A stretch of DNA of 63,967 nt, counting the filler. It is 6 parts of 6 records of this genome, joined end to end, with 100 filler letters (N's around TTAATTAATTAA, not from the genome) between each part and the next. Parts side by side here need not be neighbours in the genome. Positions count along the whole stretch, not along the records: positions 1 to 25,611 come from SRR31156797_12615; 5 more parts are not named here. One strand, 5' to 3'. The position numbers and the translations under genes were made by a program. The notes under the pieces are model-generated. The model did no database searches. It was not told where the DNA came from and saw only the letters and a program-made list of their open reading frames with translations. This document shows positions 1 through 25,711 of this stretch, one piece after another; position 1 is the stretch's first letter, and each line of letters starts with the position of its first letter.

Positions 1-119
1 CCCCCATCCTCTCCTTTTCCTAAACTTTTTGGGTCGCTTCGCGAGGGGGGGGGCGAAAAATCGCCGACCCGGAAGGTTTCGATTTTCAAGGGAAGGCCTG
101 CCAGTCAAGTCCCGGCAGG

Positions 120-210
120 CCTATTCACCACCCCTGTCAAGGTGTATTTTTATACCTATCAAGTGATTTAAGTATACATTTCTTCACATTTCGGGGTGTT
201 AGGAAAAACC
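120..210 (+). promoter_or_regulatory. Conserved upstream element, copy 1 (in front of Rhs gene)
   Basis: 77/91 nt identical without gaps to 2364-2454. Contains the imperfect inverted repeat AGGTGTA-N4-TATACCT and follows an AGGCCTGCC...GGCAGGCCT hairpin (94-122). Confidence 0.8.
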
Positions 211-271
211 AGGGGTATGGTTGTCTGGATTCTCGAGAATAATCCTTGAGGACGAAACCGTGGAGGATGAA

Positions 272-1534
272 ATGGTCCCCTATTCCTATACACTCAGGCA
301 CGATCAAAATGGTCGCATTGTGGAAAAAACCGAAACCGTCAACGGCAAGGCTGTTGTCTGGAAATATTCATATGACAAGGACGGGCGGTTGCAGGAGGCG
401 CATCTTGACGGACGACTGATCTGTCAGTGCCACTATGACAAGGAAGGTCGCCGCATACGTGATTACCTTCCGGCCACGGCTGGCCCGAACTATCGGGATT
501 ACACCTACACCATGGAAAATCGGCTGCTTCGGGCTGGAAAAGATTCGTACACACATGATGAAAAAGGCTTCCGGTCCATCTGGTCACATGGCGGCACGTA
601 TTATCTATACAAATATTCGCCCGACTATCGTCTGCTCAGGATGGAGGTGGAAGATCAGAATCGGGTCTTCACTTACCGTCATGACGACAACGGCCAACGC
701 ATTGCCAAGTATTGCAACGGCCAGTTGGTCGAGGCATACGCATGGCTCGATTTCGTCCGCCTTGCTGGCTTTCATGACGGACAACACGAGTACGAATTCG
801 CCTATCAGGACAAAACCCGCACCCCATACGCAATGCGCCGGGATGATGGCACAATCGCCTACCTCTTCTATGACCAAGTCGGAAGTCTTCGAGTCGTTGC
901 CGACCCGGAAGGCAATGTGATACAGGAAATTCTGTACGATCCATTTGGCGGCATCATTGAAGACACCAATCCGGGCCTGCGCATCCCTATCGGCTATGCC
1001 GGAGGCCTGCATGACCGCGATCTCGGCTTCGTCCGCTTCGGCTGGCGCGACTACGATGTAAACACCAGCAGATGGACCGCCCCGGACCCCATCGGCGACA
1101 AGGGTGGCGATTCAGACTGGTATGGGTATTGTCTGGATGATCCCGTGAACGGGGTGGACCCGTTGGGGTTGTTCAGGTTTGGGAAACGCCCATTGGGATT
1201 CTTGCCTGAAAATTGGCACGAGATCAGCATGAACGGATCAATAGCTGACAAATACAACTTTGAGCCCAAGCATGAACATGGATTCTACGAGGACGGCAGC
1301 GGCAATAATACTGGCTTATTTAAAGAAGGCCTCAAAAGAAAAGAAGACATTCACAAATACAAACTTGAAGACAAACATTACGACGACAAACGTATGGGGC
1401 GTGTTCAAAAGAGTGTTGACCCAGGTGAATACAATCTCATTGGCATCGGTGGAGTAAAAAACAACTGTCAGGATTATGCAGATAAAATGCGTGAACGTTA
1501 TAAATTACTCTGGCGCGGCGACAACATGCGATAA
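272..1534 (+). CDS. Short RHS-repeat protein with Rhs core and C-terminal toxin domain
   Basis: YD repeats (YSYDKDGRL, YDKEGRR), core motifs YDQVGS..YDPFG and RDYD...RWTAPDPIG, and DDPVNGVDPLG cleavage motif. ATG 272 has a GGAGG RBS; the ORF track starts at TTG 221. Confidence 0.93.
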   Translation: MVPYSYTLRHDQNGRIVEKTETVNGKAVVWKYSYDKDGRLQEAHLDGRLICQCHYDKEGRRIRDYLPATAGPNYRDYTYTMENRLLRAGKDSYTHDEKGFRSIWSHGGTYYLYKYSPDYRLLRMEVEDQNRVFTYRHDDNGQRIAKYCNGQLVEAYAWLDFVRLAGFHDGQHEYEFAYQDKTRTPYAMRRDDGTIAYLFYDQVGSLRVVADPEGNVIQEILYDPFGGIIEDTNPGLRIPIGYAGGLHDRDLGFVRFGWRDYDVNTSRWTAPDPIGDKGGDSDWYGYCLDDPVNGVDPLGLFRFGKRPLGFLPENWHEISMNGSIADKYNFEPKHEHGFYEDGSGNNTGLFKEGLKRKEDIHKYKLEDKHYDDKRMGRVQKSVDPGEYNLIGIGGVKNNCQDYADKMRERYKLLWRGDNMR

Positions 1535-1583
1535 ACAAAACGACATCGAGGGGCATAACGCCCCTCGGTTTGTAGGTACTTAA

Positions 1584-2120
1584 ATGCGATTAACAACGAT
1601 CATTATAATCATACTTACTCTTGGTGCCGCTTTTCTCTATAACACTATCTGGTTCCAAGCATTCTTTTTTCACAAAAAATTCTATGAAAATATTTATAGC
1701 GAGCCTTTTGATGTCACTAAAAAAAACGAATCAACATCTATAAAAATTAATTACAAATACAACACGTGTTATGACCTGTCTATTTCAGTCCCGGGGAGCA
1801 AATTATTTCACTCCGAAGGCATTGGTAAAGGAGTATTAAAGTATCAATTTATTTCGAACGGTCGAATACTTAAAGAGGGAACCTCATTCCAACCTTCAAA
1901 AAAGAATCTCTCACTATACAACGGAAGAAGTTCTGTTAGCATACTTGTTTTTGACCTTCCATTCCCAGGTGCAAACGGGGATCTTACACTAAATTTAAAA
2001 GTCATAGATCCTATGATTTTTTTGAAAAAATATTCAAACAACATCACTTGCCAGATTAATCCTGACTACAATCCCGACTTTAACCAATGTTACAATGAAG
2101 ATTTAAAGATTACTCAATAG
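1584..2120 (+). CDS. Putative immunity protein, exported or membrane-anchored
   Basis: AT-rich ORF directly downstream of the Rhs toxin domain, with a hydrophobic N-terminal segment. The immunity role is inferred from position. Confidence 0.65.
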   Translation: MRLTTIIIIILTLGAAFLYNTIWFQAFFFHKKFYENIYSEPFDVTKKNESTSIKINYKYNTCYDLSISVPGSKLFHSEGIGKGVLKYQFISNGRILKEGTSFQPSKKNLSLYNGRSSVSILVFDLPFPGANGDLTLNLKVIDPMIFLKKYSNNITCQINPDYNPDFNQCYNEDLKITQ

Positions 2121-2176
2121 ATGACAGAGAACAACATTCCGCACCTCAAAAACCCACTATGTTCACAATTATTCAC

Positions 2177-2274
2177 CATGACGAGATCTCGACTTCGTCC
2201 ATTTCGGCTGGCGCGACTACGATGTAAACACCGCTCCATATCCTCCGACTGATACGGGCACTTTCCCGACGCCC
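2177..2274 (+). pseudogene. Degenerate Rhs-core fragment
   Basis: 2185-2232 matches 1019-1066 at 45/48 nt and is followed by a decayed SDWYGYCLDDP segment that reads SD*YGHFPDAP. Confidence 0.8.
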
Positions 2275-2301
2275 CTTTTCAACTCCATCCGTTCACTTTT
2301 C

Positions 2302-2348
2302 AGGACAAGGCCTGCCGATCGAATCTCGGCAGGCCTTGTCCTTTTTTT
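2302..2348 (+). terminator. Intrinsic terminator
   Basis: AGGACAAGGCCTGCCGA / TCGGCAGGCCTTGTCCT stem followed by a T-run. Confidence 0.8.
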
Positions 2349-2363
2349 CGGCAAATAAACCGT

Positions 2364-2454
2364 CCTATTCCCCACCCCTGTCAAGGTGTTTTTTTATACC
2401 TATTGAATGATTTGAATATACATTCATTCACATTTCCCGGTTTTGCGAAAAACC
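2364..2454 (+). promoter_or_regulatory. Conserved upstream element, copy 2 (in front of phage-head module)
   Basis: Homologous to 120-210. It ends in a CCCGGTTTT-GCGA-AAAACCGGG hairpin (2436-2457). Confidence 0.8.
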
Positions 2455-2496
2455 GGGGTTAGCCTCCTGTGAAACATCTTACAGGAGGATTTTATT

Positions 2497-2781
2497 ATGG
2501 GAGGATCTGCATCAATAATCTCAACCGTGCTTGGCACAGTCGGAGGGTTGATCCAACACAAACCGGATTCATCCGGCGACATGGAAAAAGAACGCAAGGC
2601 TCGTGAAGAGCAACAGCGCAAAAAGGAGGCGGACGCCCGTCGAAGGGACAGGGAAAAGATAAATGAAGCCCGAAATCTGGAAAAAAAACGCAACGCCAGT
2701 ACACTCTCCAATGGAGCGGCATCTCTAGTTGAGGAAGAAGAAAACAATCCCACGGGCCTCAAGAACAAGTTGGGAGAGTAG
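2497..2781 (+). CDS. Small podophage-type protein upstream of portal
   Basis: Strong AGGAGG RBS, MGG start, charged coiled-coil middle and KLG end. Size and position match the small gene that precedes T7/BPP-1-type portals. Confidence 0.7.
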   Translation: MGGSASIISTVLGTVGGLIQHKPDSSGDMEKERKAREEQQRKKEADARRRDREKINEARNLEKKRNASTLSNGAASLVEEEENNPTGLKNKLGE

Positions 2782-2782
2782 C

Positions 2783-4561
2783 ATGGACGCAACAGAACGT
2801 GCGCGCTCGCTGCTCACCCGGTTCAGCGGGCTGGAAGAAGCACGGCAGCCATGGGTGAGTTCCTGGCAGGAATTGACCGAATACATGTTGCCCCGCAAGA
2901 ACAGTTTCACCTCCATTGGCGGATCCAACTCGTTTCGCGGTCAGACCGGTGATGAACGCATCTTCGACTCCACGCCCATGCACGCGCTGGAGCTGCTGGC
3001 TTCATCCTTGGGGGGCTTGCTTACCAACCCTTCCCTGCCGTGGTTCGATATCTCGGTTAAAGACCGTCAACTTGGTGACAATGCAGACGTACGCACCTTC
3101 CTTCAGGAAGCCCGCGAACGAATGGTTGCCGTATTCAACGCCGAAGATTCAGGGTTCCAGACTCATGTCCATGAACTTTATCTGGATGTGGCCCTGCTTG
3201 GTACTGCGGTGATGTATGTGGAAGCCGACAATGAAATGATTGTCCGATTTTCCACCAGACCGCTTGGCGAAGTCTATGTGGCCGAATCTGTTCGGGGTCA
3301 GGTGGACACCGTATACCGCAAATACGAAATATCCGCCCGTCAGGCCATTCAGGAATGGGGCGTGAACTGCTCGGATGAAACCAAACGCAAGGCCGAGGAC
3401 AAACCCGACGAGAAAGTGGAAATACTGCACGCGGTCTATCCTCGATCTGACCGCGACCCGCGTGGTCTGGGGGTAATGAACTTCCCCTATGCCAGCGTAT
3501 ACATGGAAACCAAGAACAATCACATTGTGGAAGAAACCGGCTATTTGGAAATGCCGTACATGGTTCCACGCTGGGCCAAGGCCGCAGGCGAAACCTATGG
3601 TCGTGGACCGGGCCAGACCGCCCTTTCCGATACCCGCGTGCTCAACGCCATGGCCCGTACTGCGCTTATGGCTGCCGAAAAGATGTCAGACCCGCCGCTC
3701 ATGGTGCCGGATGATGGCTTCCTCGGTCCGGTTCGCTCCGGTCCGGGTGGGTTGTCCTATTATCGGGCAGGATCATCAGACCGCATCGAAGCACTGCCGG
3801 TACATGTGGATCTCGGTGCCACCGAAGAGATGATGAACCAACGACGCGAGTCCATCCGGCGTATCTTCCTTGGCGACCAGATCGCCCCGGAAGGCCCGGC
3901 TGTCACCGCCACCGAAGCGGTTATCCGCCAATCCGAAAAAATGCGCGTCCTCGGCCCTGTCCTTGGCAGATTGCAAACTGAATTCCTCAGCCCGCTCATC
4001 AAACGCGTGTTCCGCATCATGCTCCGTAGCGGAGGCCTGCCTGCCTTCCCGCAAGGGCTAACGCCCGACGATCTGGACGTTCGCTACACCTCTCCTGTTG
4101 CCCGCGCTCAAAAGCAATACGAGGCACAGGGGTTATCCCAAACCATGGAATACCTCGGCCCGTTGGTGGGAGGCGCAGACGCCTTCGGAATCATGGACAA
4201 CTTCGACACCGATCGCATGGCTCGACACGTTGCCGAGCTGTTCGACACCCCGTCCGATTACCTGAAACCGGAACAGGATGTAGCTGCCGCTCGCGAAGGC
4301 AAAACCAAGGCTGCCGGAAGCGCACAGACCACAGCCACGGTCGCCAGCATGGCCACCATCGCCAAAACCCTGTCCGAAGCATACACGGACCGACCCAATG
4401 TTCTCACCGAACTGTGGGGAATGCTCGCCGGAGCGCTCGGTATTGTCGGACCACCGCCAGAACACATGGCTCCCGACCCCGCTCAGTCCGAAGATATGAC
4501 ACAGGAAGAGGCCATAGTCCTGCAACAAACGAAAGCAAACGAGGAGGCGTCCCATGCCTGA
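2783..4561 (+). CDS. Podovirus-type portal (head-to-tail connecting) protein
   Basis: Motifs WQELTEYMLP, FDST..ALELLAS.L...LT.P..PWF, VPRW...GETYGRGPG, TATE.....EKMRVLGPVLGRLQTEFL.PLI.R are typical of T7/BPP-1-like portals. ATG 2783 lies one base after the upstream stop. Confidence 0.92.
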   Translation: MDATERARSLLTRFSGLEEARQPWVSSWQELTEYMLPRKNSFTSIGGSNSFRGQTGDERIFDSTPMHALELLASSLGGLLTNPSLPWFDISVKDRQLGDNADVRTFLQEARERMVAVFNAEDSGFQTHVHELYLDVALLGTAVMYVEADNEMIVRFSTRPLGEVYVAESVRGQVDTVYRKYEISARQAIQEWGVNCSDETKRKAEDKPDEKVEILHAVYPRSDRDPRGLGVMNFPYASVYMETKNNHIVEETGYLEMPYMVPRWAKAAGETYGRGPGQTALSDTRVLNAMARTALMAAEKMSDPPLMVPDDGFLGPVRSGPGGLSYYRAGSSDRIEALPVHVDLGATEEMMNQRRESIRRIFLGDQIAPEGPAVTATEAVIRQSEKMRVLGPVLGRLQTEFLSPLIKRVFRIMLRSGGLPAFPQGLTPDDLDVRYTSPVARAQKQYEAQGLSQTMEYLGPLVGGADAFGIMDNFDTDRMARHVAELFDTPSDYLKPEQDVAAAREGKTKAAGSAQTTATVASMATIAKTLSEAYTDRPNVLTELWGMLAGALGIVGPPPEHMAPDPAQSEDMTQEEAIVLQQTKANEEASHA

Positions 4562-4784
4562 CACCCCTCCTCTGGAACTGCACCGAGCCTATAAACGGCT
4601 TTTTGAATCGGCTGACGGCGCAACAATCATGGATGATTTGGAAAAACGCGGAAGCTTCATGCGCTCCACATTTTCCACGGATGCAGGGCGCACACAGTTC
4701 AATGAAGGACGCAGATCGCTGATCCTGCACATGAAACACATGCTCAATGAAAACAACTTCATCAATAAGGAAAACAACCGATGA
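4554..4784 (+). CDS. Bbp19-like small phage protein
   Basis: AYKRLF...DG..I.DDL....F..ST.......FNEGRRSL motif. It overlaps both the portal stop and the scaffold start. Confidence 0.75.
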   Translation: MPDTPPLELHRAYKRLFESADGATIMDDLEKRGSFMRSTFSTDAGRTQFNEGRRSLILHMKHMLNENNFINKENNR

Positions 4785-5617
4785 CACCCAATACCAATAA
4801 AAAATGGCAGATGACCCTTCCCGAAGACTGGACCGTCAAACAGGCTGACGAAAACGGCATGGAAACGGAAATGCTCCTGCGCGACCATCCGGTTCTCGCC
4901 AAATACGCCACCAAGGACGAAGCCGTGAAGGCTTTGGTTCATGCCCAGCGCATGATCGGCAAAAGCCCGGAAGGTTATGTCCGCATGCCCGGCGATGACG
5001 ATGGCCCTGAAGAGTTGGCTGCTTTTTATACTGCTCTGGGCCGTCCCGAAGCAGCGGAAGGATATGAGCTGCCGAATATGGACGTGCCCGATGGCTTTGA
5101 AATCCGCGAAGACCTGATCAACGGCCTCAGACAAAAATCCCACGAACTGGGCTTGACCCCGAAACAGGTGTCCGGGTTGTACGAGTGGTTCATGCCGCTG
5201 GTCATGGACGCCCATCACGGAATTGAGAGCGAGGCGCAATCCCTGCGCGAGGCTGAACTGGAATCCCTGCGTTCCATTCATCGCGGCGACACACCCACCA
5301 TGCTCGATAATGCCATGCGCGCTGCCGAAGCCATTGGTGGTGACGACCTGCTGACGGCTCTTGACAAAACTAATGCGGGCAACCACGCCGCCGTCATCAA
5401 CGCATTCGCCAAAATCGCGCCACTGGTACTCGAAGGAGGTCTGCGTGGCTCAACCAAGGGCTGGGGTGAAGACCTTTCCATCGAACGACTGCGAGAAATG
5501 ATGAAAGATCCCCGCTTCAGCGATCCGTCCAAACGCGACTCTACCTTCGTCAAAAAAGTCAACGAAGGCTTTGAACTACTCTACCCCGGCGACTATGTCC
5601 CCGGCAGCAGACTCTAA
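4781..5617 (+). CDS. Putative capsid assembly (scaffold) protein
   Basis: W...LPED, AQRMIG, FY.ALGRPE...GY and HELGLTPKQ motifs, and a C-terminal MKDPRF.DP. Occupies the scaffold position after the portal. Confidence 0.75.
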   Translation: MTPNTNKKWQMTLPEDWTVKQADENGMETEMLLRDHPVLAKYATKDEAVKALVHAQRMIGKSPEGYVRMPGDDDGPEELAAFYTALGRPEAAEGYELPNMDVPDGFEIREDLINGLRQKSHELGLTPKQVSGLYEWFMPLVMDAHHGIESEAQSLREAELESLRSIHRGDTPTMLDNAMRAAEAIGGDDLLTALDKTNAGNHAAVINAFAKIAPLVLEGGLRGSTKGWGEDLSIERLREMMKDPRFSDPSKRDSTFVKKVNEGFELLYPGDYVPGSRL

Positions 5618-5679
5618 ACCATGAAAATAGGCCGGGTGCGAAATGTCGCTCCCGGCCATCCATACACGAGAAATATACT

Positions 5680-6623
5680 ATGAAATCAATGTTAAATAGC
5701 GATGCATACACACGCACACGAAAAACATCTACACCGGCAACGAGGACCGACAATGGCTTGAATATGCCGATGGAACTCTTGAGCCGGTTCGAAAAAACGG
5801 AAACCTGAACAAAAAGTTCCACGACAATCCGCAGACACTGGACTGGTGGACAGTAGACAAGCCCAGGGATTGGGACCCAGTCAAGGAAGGCAGAAAGGTT
5901 TCCCTGAACCATGATTACGGTCAGGAAAACAACCCAAAGAAAAAAACGAAAGCACCAAACAGTACACGCAGAACCATGGAGTTCAGAAAAGGCAAAGACG
6001 AATTTATTCCCATCCCATTGCCCCACCGCAATGGCGACAAGATGACACCCCAACTCTATGGGAAGGGCAAGACAGCCTTGCTTCAAGGGGCCGAAGCATA
6101 TCATGAGTTTGAAGCTCAACGTCAGGCAACAAAAACGGAAACCAAGGAAACTTCCGAAAACGGACCTGAAAAACCAACAAAATATGCCGGCGCAGACGCT
6201 GTTCCAAGGCCCACACTTCAAGATGACAAGGATTCCACAGAAAACCCTGGCGCGGCCAGCACCGGAGTCCTCGGTGGCATGGTTCAGTCCAATGGGCAGC
6301 ACGGTCAAGGTAAGGCGACCGGGGATGATCAAAGGATCGAACAATTCAAAAGGGAATATAAAGCGGCTAATAATAGCAAAAAAGGGAAATTTAAAACCCA
6401 ATTCAAAAAAGAAATCAACGAACTCAAAGAAAAAGCAAAAACCGCAAAAGGAAAAGAAAGAAAAAAGCTACTCCGACGGGCAAATCAATGGTCTGGAGCG
6501 CTAAAGGTCCTCACTGATGGCAAAATTAGACCAATTGGACCAGCAATCCTTTTCAATGCTCCACTGATGAAAAAGATCATTAAAAGCCCTTTCAGCGATC
6601 CAAATATTCCGAACAAAACATAA
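5680..6623 (+). pseudogene. Frameshifted (or phase-variable) hypothetical gene with Lys-rich, AT-rich C-terminus
   Basis: The frame of 5976-6623 stays open back to 5700. ATG 5680 would join it if one A were added to the A5 run at 5721-5725. Confidence 0.55.
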
Positions 6624-6653
6624 ACAAGAGGCGGCCAATTGCCGCCTCTTGTT
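6623..6653. terminator. Bidirectional terminator between convergent genes
   Basis: AAACAAGAGGCGGC-CAATT-GCCGCCTCTTGTTT inverted repeat. Confidence 0.75.
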
Positions 6654-7069
6654 TATGTTTTCTTAATATATAATGTGCCGTCAACATAGTACACATCGTA
6701 ATATTGACGATGATCGCGACGGACATTTTCCGCTTGTTCCAATTTTTTGAGCCACTTTGCTAAAGCATTTAAAATATCATGTTTTTTCAACAACTTTTTA
6801 ACTTGTTGTGACACGCTTGACGGTACAGCAAAAACCCCGATACTTGGTGACATTTTATACCAGTTTCCAGGAAGAAATGCCTCCCCGGTCATACTTGAAC
6901 CAAGGACCAAGATTTTTTTTTCTTTACCGGCACAACAGGTGTAGCTCACATACTCCAAATCCGTTACCTCAGCTTTCTCCAAGGCTTCATCCAAATCCCC
7001 TCTCTTGATGGGATAGGTATATCCTTTGACCAGCTTGTCCCGACCCGAAAACCTATATTCCAATGTCAT
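6653..7069 (-). CDS. Hypothetical protein (138 aa)
   Basis: AAGGAG RBS before ATG 7069 (MTLEYRFSG...). The longer ORF-track extension overlaps rlmN and is unlikely. Confidence 0.7.
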   Translation of the reverse strand: MTLEYRFSGRDKLVKGYTYPIKRGDLDEALEKAEVTDLEYVSYTCCAGKEKKILVLGSSMTGEAFLPGNWYKMSPSIGVFAVPSSVSQQVKKLLKKHDILNALAKWLKKLEQAENVRRDHRQYYDVYYVDGTLYIKKT

Positions 7070-7187
7070 CTCGTTCTCCTTCGAGAAAAAGATATACCTT
7101 GGACGTACACCCTGTGCAAGACCAAAGGCACAGGCCATAAGCCCCCTGACTTGACACAGTCCGTCATGCCGTACACAAGGGACGCGC

Positions 7188-8219
7188 ATGCAAAATCTTA
7201 TTGAATTGACAAAAAATGACCTTGAGGCGTTCGTTGCCGAGGATTTGAAAGAACCTCGTTTCCGCACCGAACAGATCTGGCAATGGCTGTGGCAGAAGCG
7301 CGTCCGCAACATTGACGCCATGACCAACCTGTCCAAGCCGCTCCGGGAAAAAGTCGCCACCATGGCAACCATTGCCTGGCCGGAAATCGCCAAAGTCGCC
7401 ACAAGCAAGGATGGGACCATCAAGTTGCTGTTGCGCATGGGTGACGGTGCGCTCATCGAGACCGTGCTCATCCCCATGAATGACCGTTACTCCCAATGCC
7501 TGTCCACTCAGGTGGGCTGTGCCATGGCGTGTACTTTCTGCAACACCGGCAAGCTCGGCTTCGAACGCAACCTGACCTATGGCGAAATCATGGGGCAGAT
7601 TCTGGTAGGCCGCCAATATCTGGAAGATCAGGGCATGAACCCACTCAAGAACCTCGTGTTCATGGGCATGGGAGAGCCGCTGCTCAACCTTGACACCCTT
7701 ATCAAAGTATTGACCGACCTGCCGTGTGAACGGGGGCTGTCTCTGTCATGGCGCCGGTCTATGGTTTCCACTGTCGGCTTCCCCGACAAACTCAAAATTT
7801 TAGGCGACCTTGAAATTGCCCTGCCTGCCATTTCCCTGCACGCTCCCACGCAGGAATTGCGCGCCAAGATCATGCCCAAGGCCGCCAAAGTACATATTAA
7901 TGACCTCATGGCCTGCCTCAAGACGTACCCTATGCGCCAACGCGAACGGATCACTTTTGAGTACCTGCTCTTGAAAGATGTGAATGACTCAATGGAGCAC
8001 GCGGACCAACTGGCTCGTCTCGTTGATCGCAGAAAGGGCAAGATCAACCTCATCGCGTACAACGCCACTGTGGGTATGCCCTACGACGCACCGGATCGAG
8101 CCAAGGTTGAAGCCTTTGAAAAACGTCTGTGGGATCACGGATTGACCGCCTTTATCCGTCGCTCCATGGGGTCAGATATCGAAGCGGCATGTGGTCAGCT
8201 CAAAGCTGAAAACATGTAA
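7188..8219 (+). CDS. rlmN: 23S rRNA/tRNA m2A methyltransferase
   Basis: CLSTQVGCAMACTFC radical SAM motif, MGMGEP, SLHA and DIEAACGQL. Confidence 0.96.
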   Translation: MQNLIELTKNDLEAFVAEDLKEPRFRTEQIWQWLWQKRVRNIDAMTNLSKPLREKVATMATIAWPEIAKVATSKDGTIKLLLRMGDGALIETVLIPMNDRYSQCLSTQVGCAMACTFCNTGKLGFERNLTYGEIMGQILVGRQYLEDQGMNPLKNLVFMGMGEPLLNLDTLIKVLTDLPCERGLSLSWRRSMVSTVGFPDKLKILGDLEIALPAISLHAPTQELRAKIMPKAAKVHINDLMACLKTYPMRQRERITFEYLLLKDVNDSMEHADQLARLVDRRKGKINLIAYNATVGMPYDAPDRAKVEAFEKRLWDHGLTAFIRRSMGSDIEAACGQLKAENM

Positions 8220-8243
8220 TCTCGATCAAATGAAATTTAAATA

Positions 8244-9128
8244 TTAACGAAGGGTTACGCTAAATTGTCTGGCGATCTTGACCAGATTGTCTGCCCAATC
8301 TTCCGCAAGAGGATCAGCCACGACGACCTGACCGCCAATAGCGTCGGCGATGGTCTGTGCTGACTTGGCAGAAAATTGCGGCTGAACAAAAACGGCCTTG
8401 ATGGATTCCTCTTTGGCCAACTCAATAACTTCGGCCAATTCTCTAGGGCCGGGATGTTTGCCTTCCAGCTCCACAGGCACCTGCACCAAACCATAATCAT
8501 GGGCAAAATATCCCCATGACGGGTGATATGTCAGAAAATGTTTTCCCTTGCTGCCTGCCAGCAACCTCTTGATTTCAGCATCCACATCATTAATTTTCGT
8601 CATCAGCTGATCATAATTTTTCCGATAAACAGAACTCTCTGTAGCATCGGCTTGAACAAGGGCAGAAAGGATGACTGCCGCTAGTTCCCGGGCCATTTTC
8701 GGAGAATTCCAGACATGCGGATCAAGAATGTGCTTGCCCTGTTCTACCTGAAGCACTTCGTTTCCATCTTGATGGTGATGATGCGAAGCCATAGGTAACA
8801 AATGCATCCCGGATGTCGATTTGACCACGGTCATATCCGGGTTTGCACTCTGCATACGAGGCAACCACGCCTTCTCAAAAGGCACACCAATGGCGACATA
8901 CAGTTTCGACCGAGTCAAAGCCACCATCTGACGGGGCTTCGGCTCATAGGTGGCTGGGCTGGCGCCGGGCGAAACCATGACCTCGACTTCAACCAGATCT
9001 CCACCGATTGATTCAACAAAGTACTTTAAAGGTGCAATGGACACCGTGACTGTCATTCTTTCTGCACGCGCAGGGACTACATAAAGCAACAACGCTGCAA
9101 AAAGGACAAAATATTTCAATCTGTTCAT
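8244..9128 (-). CDS. ZnuA/TroA-family metal ABC substrate-binding protein
   Basis: Signal peptide, SPATYEP, His-rich loop, DPHVW and YHPSWGYFA. Confidence 0.9.
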   Translation of the reverse strand: MNRLKYFVLFAALLLYVVPARAERMTVTVSIAPLKYFVESIGGDLVEVEVMVSPGASPATYEPKPRQMVALTRSKLYVAIGVPFEKAWLPRMQSANPDMTVVKSTSGMHLLPMASHHHHQDGNEVLQVEQGKHILDPHVWNSPKMARELAAVILSALVQADATESSVYRKNYDQLMTKINDVDAEIKRLLAGSKGKHFLTYHPSWGYFAHDYGLVQVPVELEGKHPGPRELAEVIELAKEESIKAVFVQPQFSAKSAQTIADAIGGQVVVADPLAEDWADNLVKIARQFSVTLR

Positions 9129-25611: not shown

Positions 25612-25711
25612 NNNNNNNNNNNNNNNNNNNNNNNNNNNNNNNNNNNNNNNNNNNNTTAATTAATTAANNNNNNNNNNNNNNNNNNNNNNNNNNNNNNNNN
25701 NNNNNNNNNNN
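25612..25711. other. Artificial contig spacer
   Basis: N-run, TTAATTAATTAA, N-run. Confidence 0.99.

Follow-up and report, generated by a model that had tools for sequence, protein, structure and literature searches.

The locus described here is probably part of the regulon of a podovirus particle that resembles a gene-transfer agent (GTA), one that would be kept by the host, vertically inherited and coupled to polymorphic toxins. It lies at the start of the analyzed stretch of DNA (the window, 63,967 nucleotides), which is a set of unrelated contigs; the analysis concerns positions 1–25612 only, an N spacer near 25612 marking the end of the locus contig. The nearest complete genome, G001, is 98% identical to the window over the locus, and in it the island sits between host genes, bounded by rlmN on one flank and by GGDEF, glycosyltransferase and oxidoreductase genes on the opposite flank. 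Loci outside the window contig were read from G001 as a close relative, which counts against our reading. A preliminary description of this DNA had proposed a dispersed, host-domesticated podovirus module with Rhs toxins under the same element, a proposal that is largely borne out: all of its feasible refutation tests gave a favorable result.

The probable head operon and its upstream element

Positions 2372–6623 (+) would constitute a head-assembly operon, in which a promoter element is followed by the genes for a small protein, the portal, a Bbp19-like and a scaffold-like protein, with a toxin-like gene appended. Its first four ORFs (2497–2781, 2774–4561, 4554–4784 and 4781–5617, all +) are all intact, with overlaps of 8, 8 and 4 nt, in agreement with the preliminary description of four intact, tightly coupled genes. 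The first encodes a Lys/Glu-rich protein of 94 aa, the counterpart of HTVC010P gp04 by position, with a weak match to phrog_15746 ‘internal virion protein’ (E 0.004), and its gene is kept ahead of the portal in relatives. It is followed by the portal, i.e., the head–tail connector (595 aa; PF12236, E 4e-152; phrog_332, 9e-134), a Bbp19-like protein of 76 aa (PF25181, E 5e-17, 61.9 bits vs. a cut-off of 25) and a scaffold-like or head-maturation protein of 278 aa. The gene previously called a scaffold is thus present, at a position equal to that of HTVC010P gp07, but the name is taken only from position and weak family matches, because these are phrog_3742 (3e-25) and phrog_458 ‘protease’ (2e-10).

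A stable hairpin between the scaffold-like gene and a fifth gene (5630–5658, +; − 23.5 kcal/mol, z = − 4.9) had been taken to close the module. The hairpin is real, but it is not followed by a T run and is therefore probably not a full terminator, and the fifth gene (5680–6623, +) lies downstream and belongs to the operon as well, so that the four-gene module must be extended. This gene is polymorphic-toxin-like, with a conserved N-terminal domain of ~65 aa (the N-domain) and a Lys-rich variable C-terminus. It is intact in G001 (319 aa) and frameshifted in the window at an A run near 5720, with indels at 5670 and 5720 relative to G001, which also counts against our reading. As described earlier, rlmN lies nearby (7188–8219, +; PF21016 at 4e-18 plus Radical_SAM), serving as host flank and synteny anchor, and the 10 largest of the remaining contig ORFs are all host-type, consistent with the earlier claim that no integrase, terminase, capsid, tail, replication or lysis gene can be recognized in the 25.6-kb contig.

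The gene order had been likened to that of BPP-1 and T7, which is imprecise. Among 50,697 phage records, the best portal matches are HTVC010P and its relatives (44–47% aa identity). Bordetella phage BPP-1, the source of the Bbp19 family, likewise has a Bbp19-like gene between the portal and scaffold genes (PF25181), but it is not among the best 15 of 291 portal matches. The Pelagibacter podophage HTVC010P, with the gene order TerL-x-small-portal-78aa-293aa-x-MCP-x-x-tailA-tailB (TerL, large terminase; MCP, major capsid), shares with the present system the order small-portal-78aa-293aa-MCP-tailA-tailB. HTVC010P-type phages are complete lytic phage genomes of ~35 kb, whereas the present module is divided up among host genes.

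Two copies of a promoter-like element, the only ones returned by a sequence-model scan of the 64-kb window, lie at 128–226 (+; model R2, 68.2 bits, E 2e-20) and at 2372–2470 (+; R2, 80 bits, E 5e-24), the latter 27 nt 5′ of the small gene. Positions 120–217 and 2364–2461 are 84% identical over 98 nt, confirming that the same element precedes the Rhs pair and the portal operon, as had been noticed before. A hairpin ahead of copy 1 (96–120, +) is part of a ~140-nt duplicated unit (78–217), and the hairpin region is also duplicated as a direct repeat (78–122 vs. 2292–2336, 78%). The element starts with GTCAA, followed by 85–86 nt to the end of AAAACCGGGG-n-TAnnnT, in which TAnnnT is a − 10-like box with AAAACCGGGG just ahead of it. 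Of 16 copies taken from two species, 13 have this spacing of 85–86 nt, and the anchors and their spacing are kept between species while the intervening sequence has diverged. The copies show no common RNA fold (z = − 3.2, − 1.3, − 0.2, 0.0 and + 1.5), and Rfam holds no family matching the element.

Putative toxin and immunity genes

Downstream of copy 1 lies a mini-Rhs polymorphic toxin gene (272–1534, +; PF25023, E 1e-22, 80 bits vs. a cut-off of 50), the ORF of which is open from 221, with a Shine-Dalgarno sequence and a likely ATG at 272 giving 420 aa. The protein begins straight in YD repeats without an N-terminal delivery domain, and its core terminates in DPLGL, followed by a variable C-terminus of ~120 aa; in G153, G121 and G193, orthologues likewise follow a copy of the element. 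The next gene (1584–2120, +) encodes a putative immunity protein of 178 aa with an N-terminal membrane helix (hydrophobic segment at residues 6–24), for which a Pfam/PHROG search gave no match and homologues of which (41–46%) follow Rhs genes in G153 and G121. An orphan fragment of an Rhs core end (2182–2232, +), 92% identical to 1016–1066, is a remnant of a displaced Rhs C-terminal cassette, and G001 carries ~0.7–0.8 kb of extra orphan cassette at this site. The Rhs cassette is closed by an intrinsic terminator (2302–2342, +), a 17-bp stem followed by a T run. On the far side of the head operon, a two-way terminator hairpin (6612–6664; 24-nt arms, 96% complementary) separates the fifth gene from a convergent gene for an immunity-like protein of 140 aa (6653–7075, −). 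This protein, for which the Pfam/PHROG search returned no family, belongs to a group arrayed beside N-domain toxin genes, with two paralogues in G001 and four beside the N-domain gene of G153.

At seven loci of the genus, an N-domain toxin-like gene lies directly 3′ of the scaffold-like gene, i.e., inside the head operon. This arrangement favors an alternative that we consider possible although doubtful, namely a real domesticated particle that was selected to deliver toxins or to kill, as a podovirus-type bacteriocin or ‘capsid secretion’ device, and not for gene transfer. The particle would bear the N-domain toxins, perhaps along with the mini-Rhs, on its surface or inside it and would inject them into the periplasm or cytoplasm of rival cells, and DNA packaging would merely pressurize or complete the head. 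The N-domain also heads long Rhs proteins and Ntox44/peptidase fusions, always at residues ~8–90, in the manner of polymorphic-toxin delivery domains (among the 54 family members scanned, an Rhs shell is present in 7 and Ntox44 in 2). The immunity-like protein of the Rhs pair is membrane-anchored, and toxins of G193 end in lysozyme or CHAP, which fits periplasmic action. However, the N-termini of the mini-Rhs, of the N-domain proteins and of the G193 family are of three unrelated types, making a single common loading signal unlikely; constraint on TerL (dN/dS 0.023) matches that on the capsid gene; and neither fold nor sequence connected the N-domain to any virion protein.

The same alternative draws on the MuF toxins (‘capsid packaging-like secretion’), which, like the genes here, are polymorphic toxins genetically tied to phage head genes. 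In the available portion of their paper, Zhang et al. (2012) link MuF-fused toxins with prophage-remnant genes for portal, terminase and capsid, proposing that these toxins are packaged in the capsid and ride in the head. By comparison, the toxins here are Rhs and new-N-domain proteins, linked through a shared putative promoter and a place in the operon and not through fusion to a head protein, and the profile search of the window proteins reported no MuF domain. Under the GTA-like reading that we prefer, sharing one promoter means that the toxins would be made only in producer cells, and either lysis would then free them or the particle would carry them, on its outside or within.

Dispersal, descent and selection of the structural genes

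The capsid and terminase genes, along with tail genes, are present elsewhere in G001, the nearest complete genome. There, the genes for portal, major capsid, large terminase and tail B occur once each, undamaged, and are spread over ~0.44 Mb, the four sites being 3.050, 3.093, 3.316 and 3.491 Mb. Portal, TerL, tail B and MCP (PF19821) are single-copy and intact in 5/5 complete genomes of the genus, except that the MCP gene of G174 is split by a ~42-kb insert; TerL is 79–84% identical between species. The scaffold-like gene of G174 has a stop at codon 109, which together with the split MCP gene indicates that the system can decay and counts against our reading. No replication or integration genes were seen at the loci examined, and in the G001 regulon neither an endolysin nor any internal or ejection protein could be recognized, two small membrane proteins being the only lysis candidates.

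Far from being patchy, the portal was found in all seven genus members, and in six of them rlmN lies 1.2–6.2 kb away. In the family sample, 12 genera have at least three genomes, and in 10 of these the portal is present in every genome or in none; portal identity follows rlmN identity (Spearman 0.88, n = 29; 0.72, n = 22, when the genus is excluded). In genera g14 and g72, the portal is closer than rlmN predicts, and in genus g8 rlmN is similarly close (60–64%) but the portal just 33–35% identical; because of these deviations, descent was not purely vertical.

Purifying selection on the structural genes is strong, with dN/dS values of 0.01–0.10 that are similar to that of rlmN, although they are rough because the between-species dS is partly saturated (0.5–2.2). 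For the window/G001 against G174, dN/dS is 0.050 for the portal, 0.010 for MCP, 0.023 for TerL, 0.042 for tail B, 0.019 for tail A and 0.071 for the scaffold-like gene, compared with 0.031 for rlmN and 0.026 for zip, two neighbours with similar dS; for the portal, the window against G001 gives 0.024, and the range over comparisons is 0.024–0.078. Such constraint in all structural genes, equal to that of housekeeping neighbours, excludes neutral decay and thus speaks against fragments of one old cryptic prophage, scattered by rearrangements and being lost, with the element as the phage's repeated late promoter and no particle today. The lesions in G174 and the failure to recognize lysis or ejection genes fit such a prophage, and compact forms in other genera already have the element before several modules, so that no selection after dispersal would be needed. 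However, the structural genes are all intact in four of the five complete genomes, and the element has kept its anchors and spacing, leaving this explanation improbable.

The element across genomes and the proposed regulon

Model R1 gave 10 hits in G001 and 8 in G174, the latter being outside the R1 training set; model R2 gave 9 in G001, 7 in G174, 12 in G193, 12 in G153 and 8 in G121, with G153 and G121 outside both training sets. The position of copy 2 is conserved in G174, G153, G121, G076 and eight further Pseudodesulfovibrio contigs. In the five complete Pseudodesulfovibrio genomes, the element stands ahead of both tail units (A and B) as well as the portal and capsid units, and also 1.6–1.9 kb upstream of the terminase; the tail-A copy is present in G001, G174, G193 and G153, tail A itself not having been found in one of the five. 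In G153 and G121, elements lie 30–157 nt ahead of the small-portal, MCP and tail-B genes and 1.6–1.8 kb ahead of TerL. The element also precedes Rhs genes in 5/5 complete genomes, other polymorphic-toxin genes and a glycosyltransferase operon, and weaker copies stand ahead of the same modules in five other genera. It is very unlikely to be a mobile repeat or a promoter or operator type in general use by the host (serving a stress or stationary-phase factor), with a non-specific phage–toxin link: the glycosyltransferase operon and one orphan G001 copy lacking an Rhs gene downstream would suit it, whereas there are just 7–12 R2 hits per 3.5–3.9-Mb genome, the nine in G001 fall on five phage structural units, two Rhs genes, the glycosyltransferase operon and the orphan, all annotated copies point toward the following gene, and five species show these classes of gene again.

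In the GTA-like reading, the ancestor would be an HTVC010P-like podovirus, the contiguous structural module of which would have been split in this genus into at least five transcription units among host genes: one for the terminase and a small-membrane-protein pair, one each for the portal group, the capsid and tail A, and one for tail B and the fibres. Four of the five begin directly behind the ~95-bp promoter-like region. In the terminase unit, the element precedes the two small membrane-protein genes; the G001 stretch from these genes to TerL is best read as an opposite-strand lipoprotein gene, so that TerL may be served by another promoter, which counts against our reading. One dedicated putative regulator would turn on the whole set, and the product would be a DNA-packaging short-tailed particle, a GTA-like ‘viriform’ since the particle could not carry its own scattered genes. 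The same promoter would drive the mini-Rhs, the new-N-domain proteins, the peptidoglycan-hydrolase toxins (in one species) and the glycosyltransferase operon. The sole RNA-library signal is four short portal contigs in one metatranscriptome, which DNA carry-over could explain.

RcGTA genes have a multi-locus layout. The RcGTA-type GTAs of Alphaproteobacteria (Rhodogtaviriformidae) are, like the present system, vertically inherited phage structural genes kept by the host under purifying selection, spread over several loci under common control, which is here predicted. RcGTA differs in being siphovirus-like and unrelated in sequence, whereas the ancestor here would be an HTVC010P-like podovirus. 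The units here share one recognizable ~95-bp element, and the set includes polymorphic toxin genes. Particle production and transfer are here predicted. As a further similarity, a surface-polysaccharide function (the capsule receptor) is co-regulated with RcGTA, according to the available text of Kogay et al. (2022).

Dd1 is the GTA of Desulfovibrio desulfuricans, a sulfate reducer that belongs to the same family but to a different genus. It was reportedly described by Rapp and Wall in 1987; its particle is short-tailed, and older reviews reportedly give a candidate Dd1 cluster. The link between Dd1 and the present system is only an analogy. In the part of the literature available, the Desulfovibrio GTA is presented as found experimentally and cursorily characterized, and the available text of Kogay et al. 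(2022) classifies only three GTA groups with an established genetic basis, Dd1 not among them. With its scattered phage-particle genes and toxins behind what would be one switch, this sulfate reducer looks like the bearer of a new gene-transfer-agent-like system.

Head operon and Rhs cassette of the window

The feature lies on the first contig only (1–25612, with the N spacer beginning near 25612), where 1–2232, 2182–6314 and 6956–8300 are 98% identical to G001, the nearest complete genome, a chromosome of 3.70 Mb. The preliminary description had placed four tightly coupled head genes at 2497–5617, and these are confirmed as overlapping ORFs: a small ORF (2497–2781) overlaps a podovirus portal ORF (2774–4561) by 8 nt, which overlaps a Bbp19-like ORF (4554–4784; PF25181, E = 5e-17) by another 8 nt, which in turn overlaps a scaffold-like ORF (4781–5617) by 4 nt. 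The portal matches PF12236 (Head-tail_con) at full length (E = 4e-152; 507 bits, above the cut-off; profile positions 3–488 of 489). The fourth ORF, previously called a scaffold gene, is present; it matches phrog_3742 (3e-25) and also a 'protease' PHROG (2e-10), so that 'scaffold' is a name by position. The hairpin said to close the operon is stable (5630–5658, z = −4.9) but is not followed by a T run. The claim that no integrase, terminase, capsid, tail, replication or lysis gene is recognisable on the contig agrees with its 10 largest other ORFs, which are all of host type (Nfo-like, HAD, chemoreceptors, GlnA, transglycosylase, SpoIIE-type phosphatase).

Upstream of the operon lie an Rhs gene (420–437 aa; PF25023, E = 1e-22), a gene for a membrane-anchored protein of 178 aa, an orphan Rhs-core piece of 51 nt (2182–2232, 92% identical to 1016–1066) and a strong terminator (2302–2342). 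The Rhs protein carries a partial YD-repeat shell, matching PF25023 with 80.3 bits (cut-off 50) at profile positions 598–866 of 909 only. Its core end, DPLGL, is followed by a C-terminus without a family match, then by the 178-aa gene and then by the orphan core fragment. With further orphan Rhs cassettes seen in G001 and in G153 and G121, two other complete Pseudodesulfovibrio genomes, this arrangement fits the pattern of Rhs/YD-repeat toxins, i.e., a variable C-terminus, a putative immunity gene and orphan cassettes. Whereas classical Rhs toxins have an N-terminal delivery domain, the window mini-Rhs begins inside the YD repeats and has no N-terminal export domain (PAAR, signal peptide, etc.). 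The cassette is flanked by two hairpin-plus-element units and is missing in G174, a further complete genome of the genus, and thus looks like an insertion via recombination between promoter copies. The window differs from G001 in the cassette regions 1149–2182 and 6314–6956; G001 has ~707 nt of extra orphan Rhs-end/immunity sequence relative to the window, and in the toxin C-terminus/immunity region 1059 nt of G001 replace 641 nt. These strain differences fit a rapid turnover of cassettes.

Directly 3′ of the hairpin, a fifth gene opens at ATG 5680 and encodes 319 aa in G001. It is frameshifted in the window at an A run near 5720, and G001-like contigs have one base fewer at 5670 and one extra after 5720 relative to the window; the frameshift may be genuine or may stem from a homopolymer error. 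A 140-aa gene on the minus strand (6653–7075) is convergent to the fifth gene, with a two-way terminator between both. The contig start (1–50) is a short repeat with ~20 occurrences in G001 at 83–97% identity, probably a REP-like element and a likely cause of the assembly break. N spacers (25613–25711 and further on) separate contigs that differ strongly in GC content (~0.50, then ~0.60 at 26–42 kb, 0.30 at 43–53 kb and 0.40 at 53–60 kb); the window is a mixed bin or a concatenation of unrelated contigs rather than a single replicon.

Scattered particle genes and their shared upstream element

PF12236 detects exactly one portal in G001 and none in 14 control genomes. The other particle genes of G001 lie at separate loci: the capsid gene (MCP, PF19821) at 3,491,209–3,492,006 and tail B (phrog_376) at 3,049,514–3,051,583 are single-copy, the large terminase (TerL) has one close match at 3,092,113–3,093,396, and a tail-A-like gene (phrog_394) near 3.072 Mb was read at that locus, its family not being scanned genome-wide. 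Tail B is followed by a 155-aa gene and by two fibre-like proteins, one of 328 aa whose N-terminus is of the T7 fibre type (phrog_1640, 4e-24) and one of 827 aa with DUF7483. Portal, scaffold-like protein, MCP, TerL, tail A, tail B and the two fibre-like proteins together make up a caudovirus-like particle set (head, portal, packaging, tail). Among the G001 particle genes, neither ejection proteins nor endolysin/lysis proteins were recognised; two small membrane proteins that head the terminase-side unit are the sole lysis candidates. G174, G193, G153 and G121, the four other complete genomes of the genus, have one open copy each of portal, MCP, TerL and tail B (start codons uncurated), except for a split capsid gene in G174.

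The units are spread over ~40 kb in G193, ~67 kb in G153 and ~442 kb in G001 (3,049,514–3,492,006). An intact, inducible prophage would carry its integration, replication and lysis modules in one unbroken genome. At the loci examined, however, the portal island of G001 lies between host genes, with rlmN at one end and a GGDEF cyclase, a glycosyltransferase and oxidoreductases at the other, and the structural genes are 43–265 kb apart, which argues against such a prophage. Among phages, the portal best matches HTVC010P-type podophages of Pelagibacter (44–47% aa identity), and all 291 matching records are below 60%. In HTVC010P the order TerL-x-small-portal-78aa-293aa-x-MCP-x-x-tail A-tail B is contiguous, whereas the present loci are scattered, suggesting that one ancestral module was cut into at least five units.

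In three other genera (loci L047, L049 and L055) the cluster is more compact, yet it is partly rearranged and mixed with a gene for an HD-GYP c-di-GMP phosphodiesterase, which lies between TerL and portal (L049 4995–6236, L055 13537–14892, L047 4694–7549). This neighbour and the GGDEF cyclase that flanks the G001 locus (L011 627–2129) hint at c-di-GMP control. Two candidate genes near TerL were dropped. A 743-aa ORF beside it, with Gly/Ser- and Asn/Asp-rich repeats, low Protein Atlas recognition and only low-complexity look-alikes, is probably a host gene; a supposed gene of 221 aa, located between TerL and the small membrane proteins (dN/dS ~1.2), is better read as antisense to a 306-aa lipoprotein-like ORF.

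The element said to precede both the Rhs pair and the head operon is indeed the same: 120–217 and 2364–2461 agree at 84% over 98 nt, with the preceding hairpin duplicated too. A model of it finds two copies only in the 64-kb window (E = 5e-24 and 2e-20). R1, a model built from these copies and look-alikes near G001 loci, gave 10 matches in G001. They lie before small-portal, tail A, tail B and MCP (gene start ~140 nt further on), before two Rhs genes and a deacetylase/glycosyltransferase gene, and before the pair of small membrane-protein genes that sits 1.7 kb upstream of TerL; the remaining two are an orphan copy without an Rhs gene and a weak match. G174, which lies outside the model, yields eight matches, which precede an Rhs gene, the same glycosyltransferase operon as in G001 and the units of portal, MCP, both tail genes and the terminase side. 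In G193 diverged sequence separates the anchors, with the architecture kept before the MCP, tail B, portal and terminase-side units. Measured from GTCAA through to the end of AAAACCGGGG-n-TAnnnT, 13 of the 16 copies examined span 85–86 nt.

A second model, R2, was built from G001/window and G193 copies and run on the five genomes, with 7–12 matches per genome. In G153 and G121, which were in no training set, small-portal, MCP and tail B have matches 30–157 nt ahead of them and TerL has one at 1.6–1.8 kb; tail A, which is not found in G121, is preceded by R2 matches in G153 and G193. The scan proposed in the preliminary description thus returned what it had anticipated for capsid, tail and Rhs genes, with the portal, capsid and both tail units directly behind copies and the terminase 1.6–1.9 kb downstream of one. 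In G001, the 306-aa ORF (L082 11443–12363) intervenes on the opposite strand between the small membrane-protein genes and TerL, so the promoter serving TerL is ambiguous, which we count against the scheme. The element also precedes small-portal in eight further Pseudodesulfovibrio contigs, and five other genera (L047, L048, L049, L052/L053, L055) carry weaker copies (14–33 bits) at the corresponding modules.

A structured RNA was considered and rejected, as folds are not common to the copies (z = −3.2, −1.3, −0.2, 0.0 and +1.5) and no Rfam family matched; the element is therefore read as a putative promoter region, with an upstream protein-binding site at a fixed helical distance from a −10-like box. 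A sigma-70 consensus scan gave 6 sites against 6.5 expected, none inside the element core. One RNA library from a sediment metatranscriptome (X1) gave four short contigs on the portal and none on Rhs, the scaffold-like gene or rlmN, a gap that carries no evidential weight; the contigs of X2–X4 resemble DNA of a G001-like strain.

A longer-spaced variant of the element, with ~128 nt rather than 86 nt from GTCAA to the −10-like box, escaped R1 and R2 and precedes another group of mini-Rhs orthologues (L004 1100–1500, at 3.143 Mb of G001; L095 11990–12135 in G193). In three species the element is followed by a gene or operon for a 700-aa polysaccharide deacetylase plus GT4 glycosyltransferase: immediately in G001 (L086 1654–3756), after two small ORFs in G174 (L089) and ~4 kb downstream in G121 (L117). 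The orthologues are 90% and 65% identical, and the product may modify a surface polysaccharide or receptor.

Selection and descent

Nei–Gojobori dN/dS ratios of window/G001 against G174, which are rough where dS exceeds 1 and is saturated, are low: 0.050 for the portal (dS 0.66), 0.010 for MCP, 0.023 for TerL, 0.042 for tail B, 0.019 for tail A, 0.071 for the scaffold-like gene, 0.096 for the Bbp19-like gene and 0.17 for the small gene. The neighbours rlmN (0.031), zip (0.026) and znuA (0.094) have a dS similar to that of the particle genes, and the portal ratio of window against G001 is 0.024. These ratios bear out the low dN/dS expected of a domesticated system, and the expectations of a single-copy portal and of synteny with rlmN held as well: each of the five complete genomes has one PF12236 portal, which lies 1.2–6.2 kb from rlmN in six of seven genus genomes, the exception being G121, at 100 kb.

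In the family sample, a PF12236-type portal matched in 131 of 201 genomes (110 of the 162 of good quality), and its presence is all-or-none in 10 of the 12 genera with at least three genomes listed. Matches fall into two tiers, at ≥57% and at 30–40% identity. The upper tier comprises the genus and the genera closest to it by rlmN (59–67% rlmN identity), and within it portal identity tracks that of rlmN (Spearman 0.88, n = 29; 0.72, n = 22, with the genus left out), with P values that overstate the significance, as kin are not independent. The lower tier, which has no such relation (0.22, n = 40), probably represents other phage lineages. Three genera deviate: in g8 rlmN is close (60–64%) but the portal is only 33–35% identical, and in g14 and g72 the portal is 60–62% identical though rlmN is more distant (55% in g14; by weaker E-value only in g72). 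Apart from these exceptions, the distribution points to vertical transmission with the cell genome. Two genes are broken in G174: the scaffold-like gene has a stop at codon 109 (L042 11450–12286), and ~42 kb (L092/L066/L067, 2,431,321–2,474,121) interrupt the capsid gene at nt 637/641. By-eye reading of N-terminal sequences finds phage-like primase-like and terminase-like proteins in this insert, which looks like another mobile element or prophage inside the domesticated capsid gene. Both lesions count against the GTA-like reading, as do the frameshift in the fifth gene of the window, the failure to recognise endolysin or ejection proteins and an RNA record confined to the four portal contigs of X1.

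Toxin coupling and a GTA-like reading

Rhs genes behind the element occur in every one of the five complete genomes: two in G001, plus a further mini-Rhs behind the longer-spaced variant, one in G174, four in G153, two in G121, and in G193 a frameshifted one behind a standard element and another behind the longer variant. The mini-Rhs proteins have a common N-terminus that begins inside the YD repeats. The long Rhs proteins of G001 (646-aa ORF) and G174 (611 aa) open with a ~65-aa N-terminal domain, the N-domain, which also opens the fifth gene of the window and its relatives. An N-domain gene stands directly 3′ of the scaffold-like gene at seven loci of the genus (window/G001, L102, L103, L107, L109, G121 and G076), and in G153 it stands alone behind its own element copy, beside four paralogues of the 140-aa gene.

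Among 1.84 billion representatives (clusters at 50% identity), a profile search found 72 N-domain proteins at E ≤ 1e-3, 47–787 aa long apart from one 1684-aa repeat protein, with the domain nearly always at residues ~8–90. Scanning 54 of them revealed an Rhs shell in seven, Ntox44 in two and M15/VanY peptidase domains in single members; all five close homologues named by NCBI are from Pseudodesulfovibrio. Polymorphic toxins with a trafficking domain at the N-terminus show this pattern, and the N-domain is predicted to be such a domain. Its predicted fold (mean pLDDT 69.6) had no match at E ≤ 0.001 among PDB and viral structures. In MuF-toxin systems the MuF domain is fused to the toxin, whereas no MuF family was found in nine window proteins, nor do the families listed for the 54 scanned N-domain proteins include one; on this evidence the window system is not a MuF-type system of capsid-packaged toxins.

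A separate family in G193 (L095, L096, L097; 1.333–1.402 Mb) has seven matches, four of them behind the element, with a common ~320-aa N-terminus and C-termini that are Phage_lysozyme, CHAP or unmatched; its members could be toxins or the missing lysis/penetration enzymes. A terminase-portal cluster of G175, in genus g8, has a 694-aa Rhs gene (L060 1372–3456) ~3 kb upstream of its terminase. This Rhs is 38% identical to that of the window, and the portal of the cluster only 32%. The Rhs–phage head neighbourhood may recur in another lineage.

The feature is real and not due to chance, and its earlier interpretation as a dispersed, domesticated podovirus module tied to Rhs toxins is supported. 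In G001, a complete-looking podovirus head, packaging and tail set is single-copy, intact, under selection, vertically kept and scattered. Kogay et al. 2022 require of a gene transfer agent (GTA) a caudovirus-like particle, encapsidation of at most part of its own genes, vertical transmission, induction in a small subpopulation under cellular control, and packaging and transfer of random host DNA. With units ~442 kb apart and related phages of ~35 kb, the geometry suggests that a particle would hold at most part of its own genes. The shared promoter-like element bears on induction, and the intact and constrained TerL on transfer. Gene content, the self-packaging limit and vertical descent agree in silico with this definition, and we call this podovirus-derived, dispersed, promoter-unified and toxin-coupled system GTA-like rather than a proven GTA; known here from its genes, it would work like one.

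In the proposed mechanism, a dedicated regulator would switch on all element-preceded units jointly, probably in part of the cells, and a DNA-filled, short-tailed particle would be built, whose own genes are too far apart to fit. Producer cells would then lyse, with the two small membrane proteins of the terminase-side unit as lysis candidates, and toxins would either escape at this point or travel with the particle. Carriage is favoured for the N-domain family by the place of its gene within the head operon, and co-release for the remaining toxins by the three unrelated toxin N-termini.

An established genetic basis exists for three GTA groups only, Dd1 of Desulfovibrio not included (Kogay et al. 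2022), and Dd1 has been characterised cursorily. The likeness of Dd1 to the present system is one of analogy only. A candidate Dd1 gene cluster is reportedly described in an older review. The literature searched, to which supplements and most subscription papers did not belong, held no paper with both 'Pseudodesulfovibrio' and 'gene transfer agent' and none describing this system. We consider it rather unlikely that the system is at once a fourth genetically defined class of GTA-like viriforms, the first from a podovirus and the missing gene set behind Dd1-type agents, and that its particles deliver N-domain toxins (including the long Rhs), loaded via the head operon, into rivals, thereby placing gene transfer and killing in one regulon.

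The Desulfovibrio agent has been known since 1987 and stands outside the three genetically based GTA groups. A conserved, selected and scattered podovirus gene set with a common promoter offers concrete genes and a DNA element that are testable in sulfate reducers, and the element may ease the finding of dispersed loci of such systems in related genomes. The N-domain is a new family of N-terminal toxin domains, with 72 clusters at 50% identity, and coupling through the promoter to Rhs and further polymorphic toxins, together with a toxin gene in the head operon, would be a new tie between toxin and particle.
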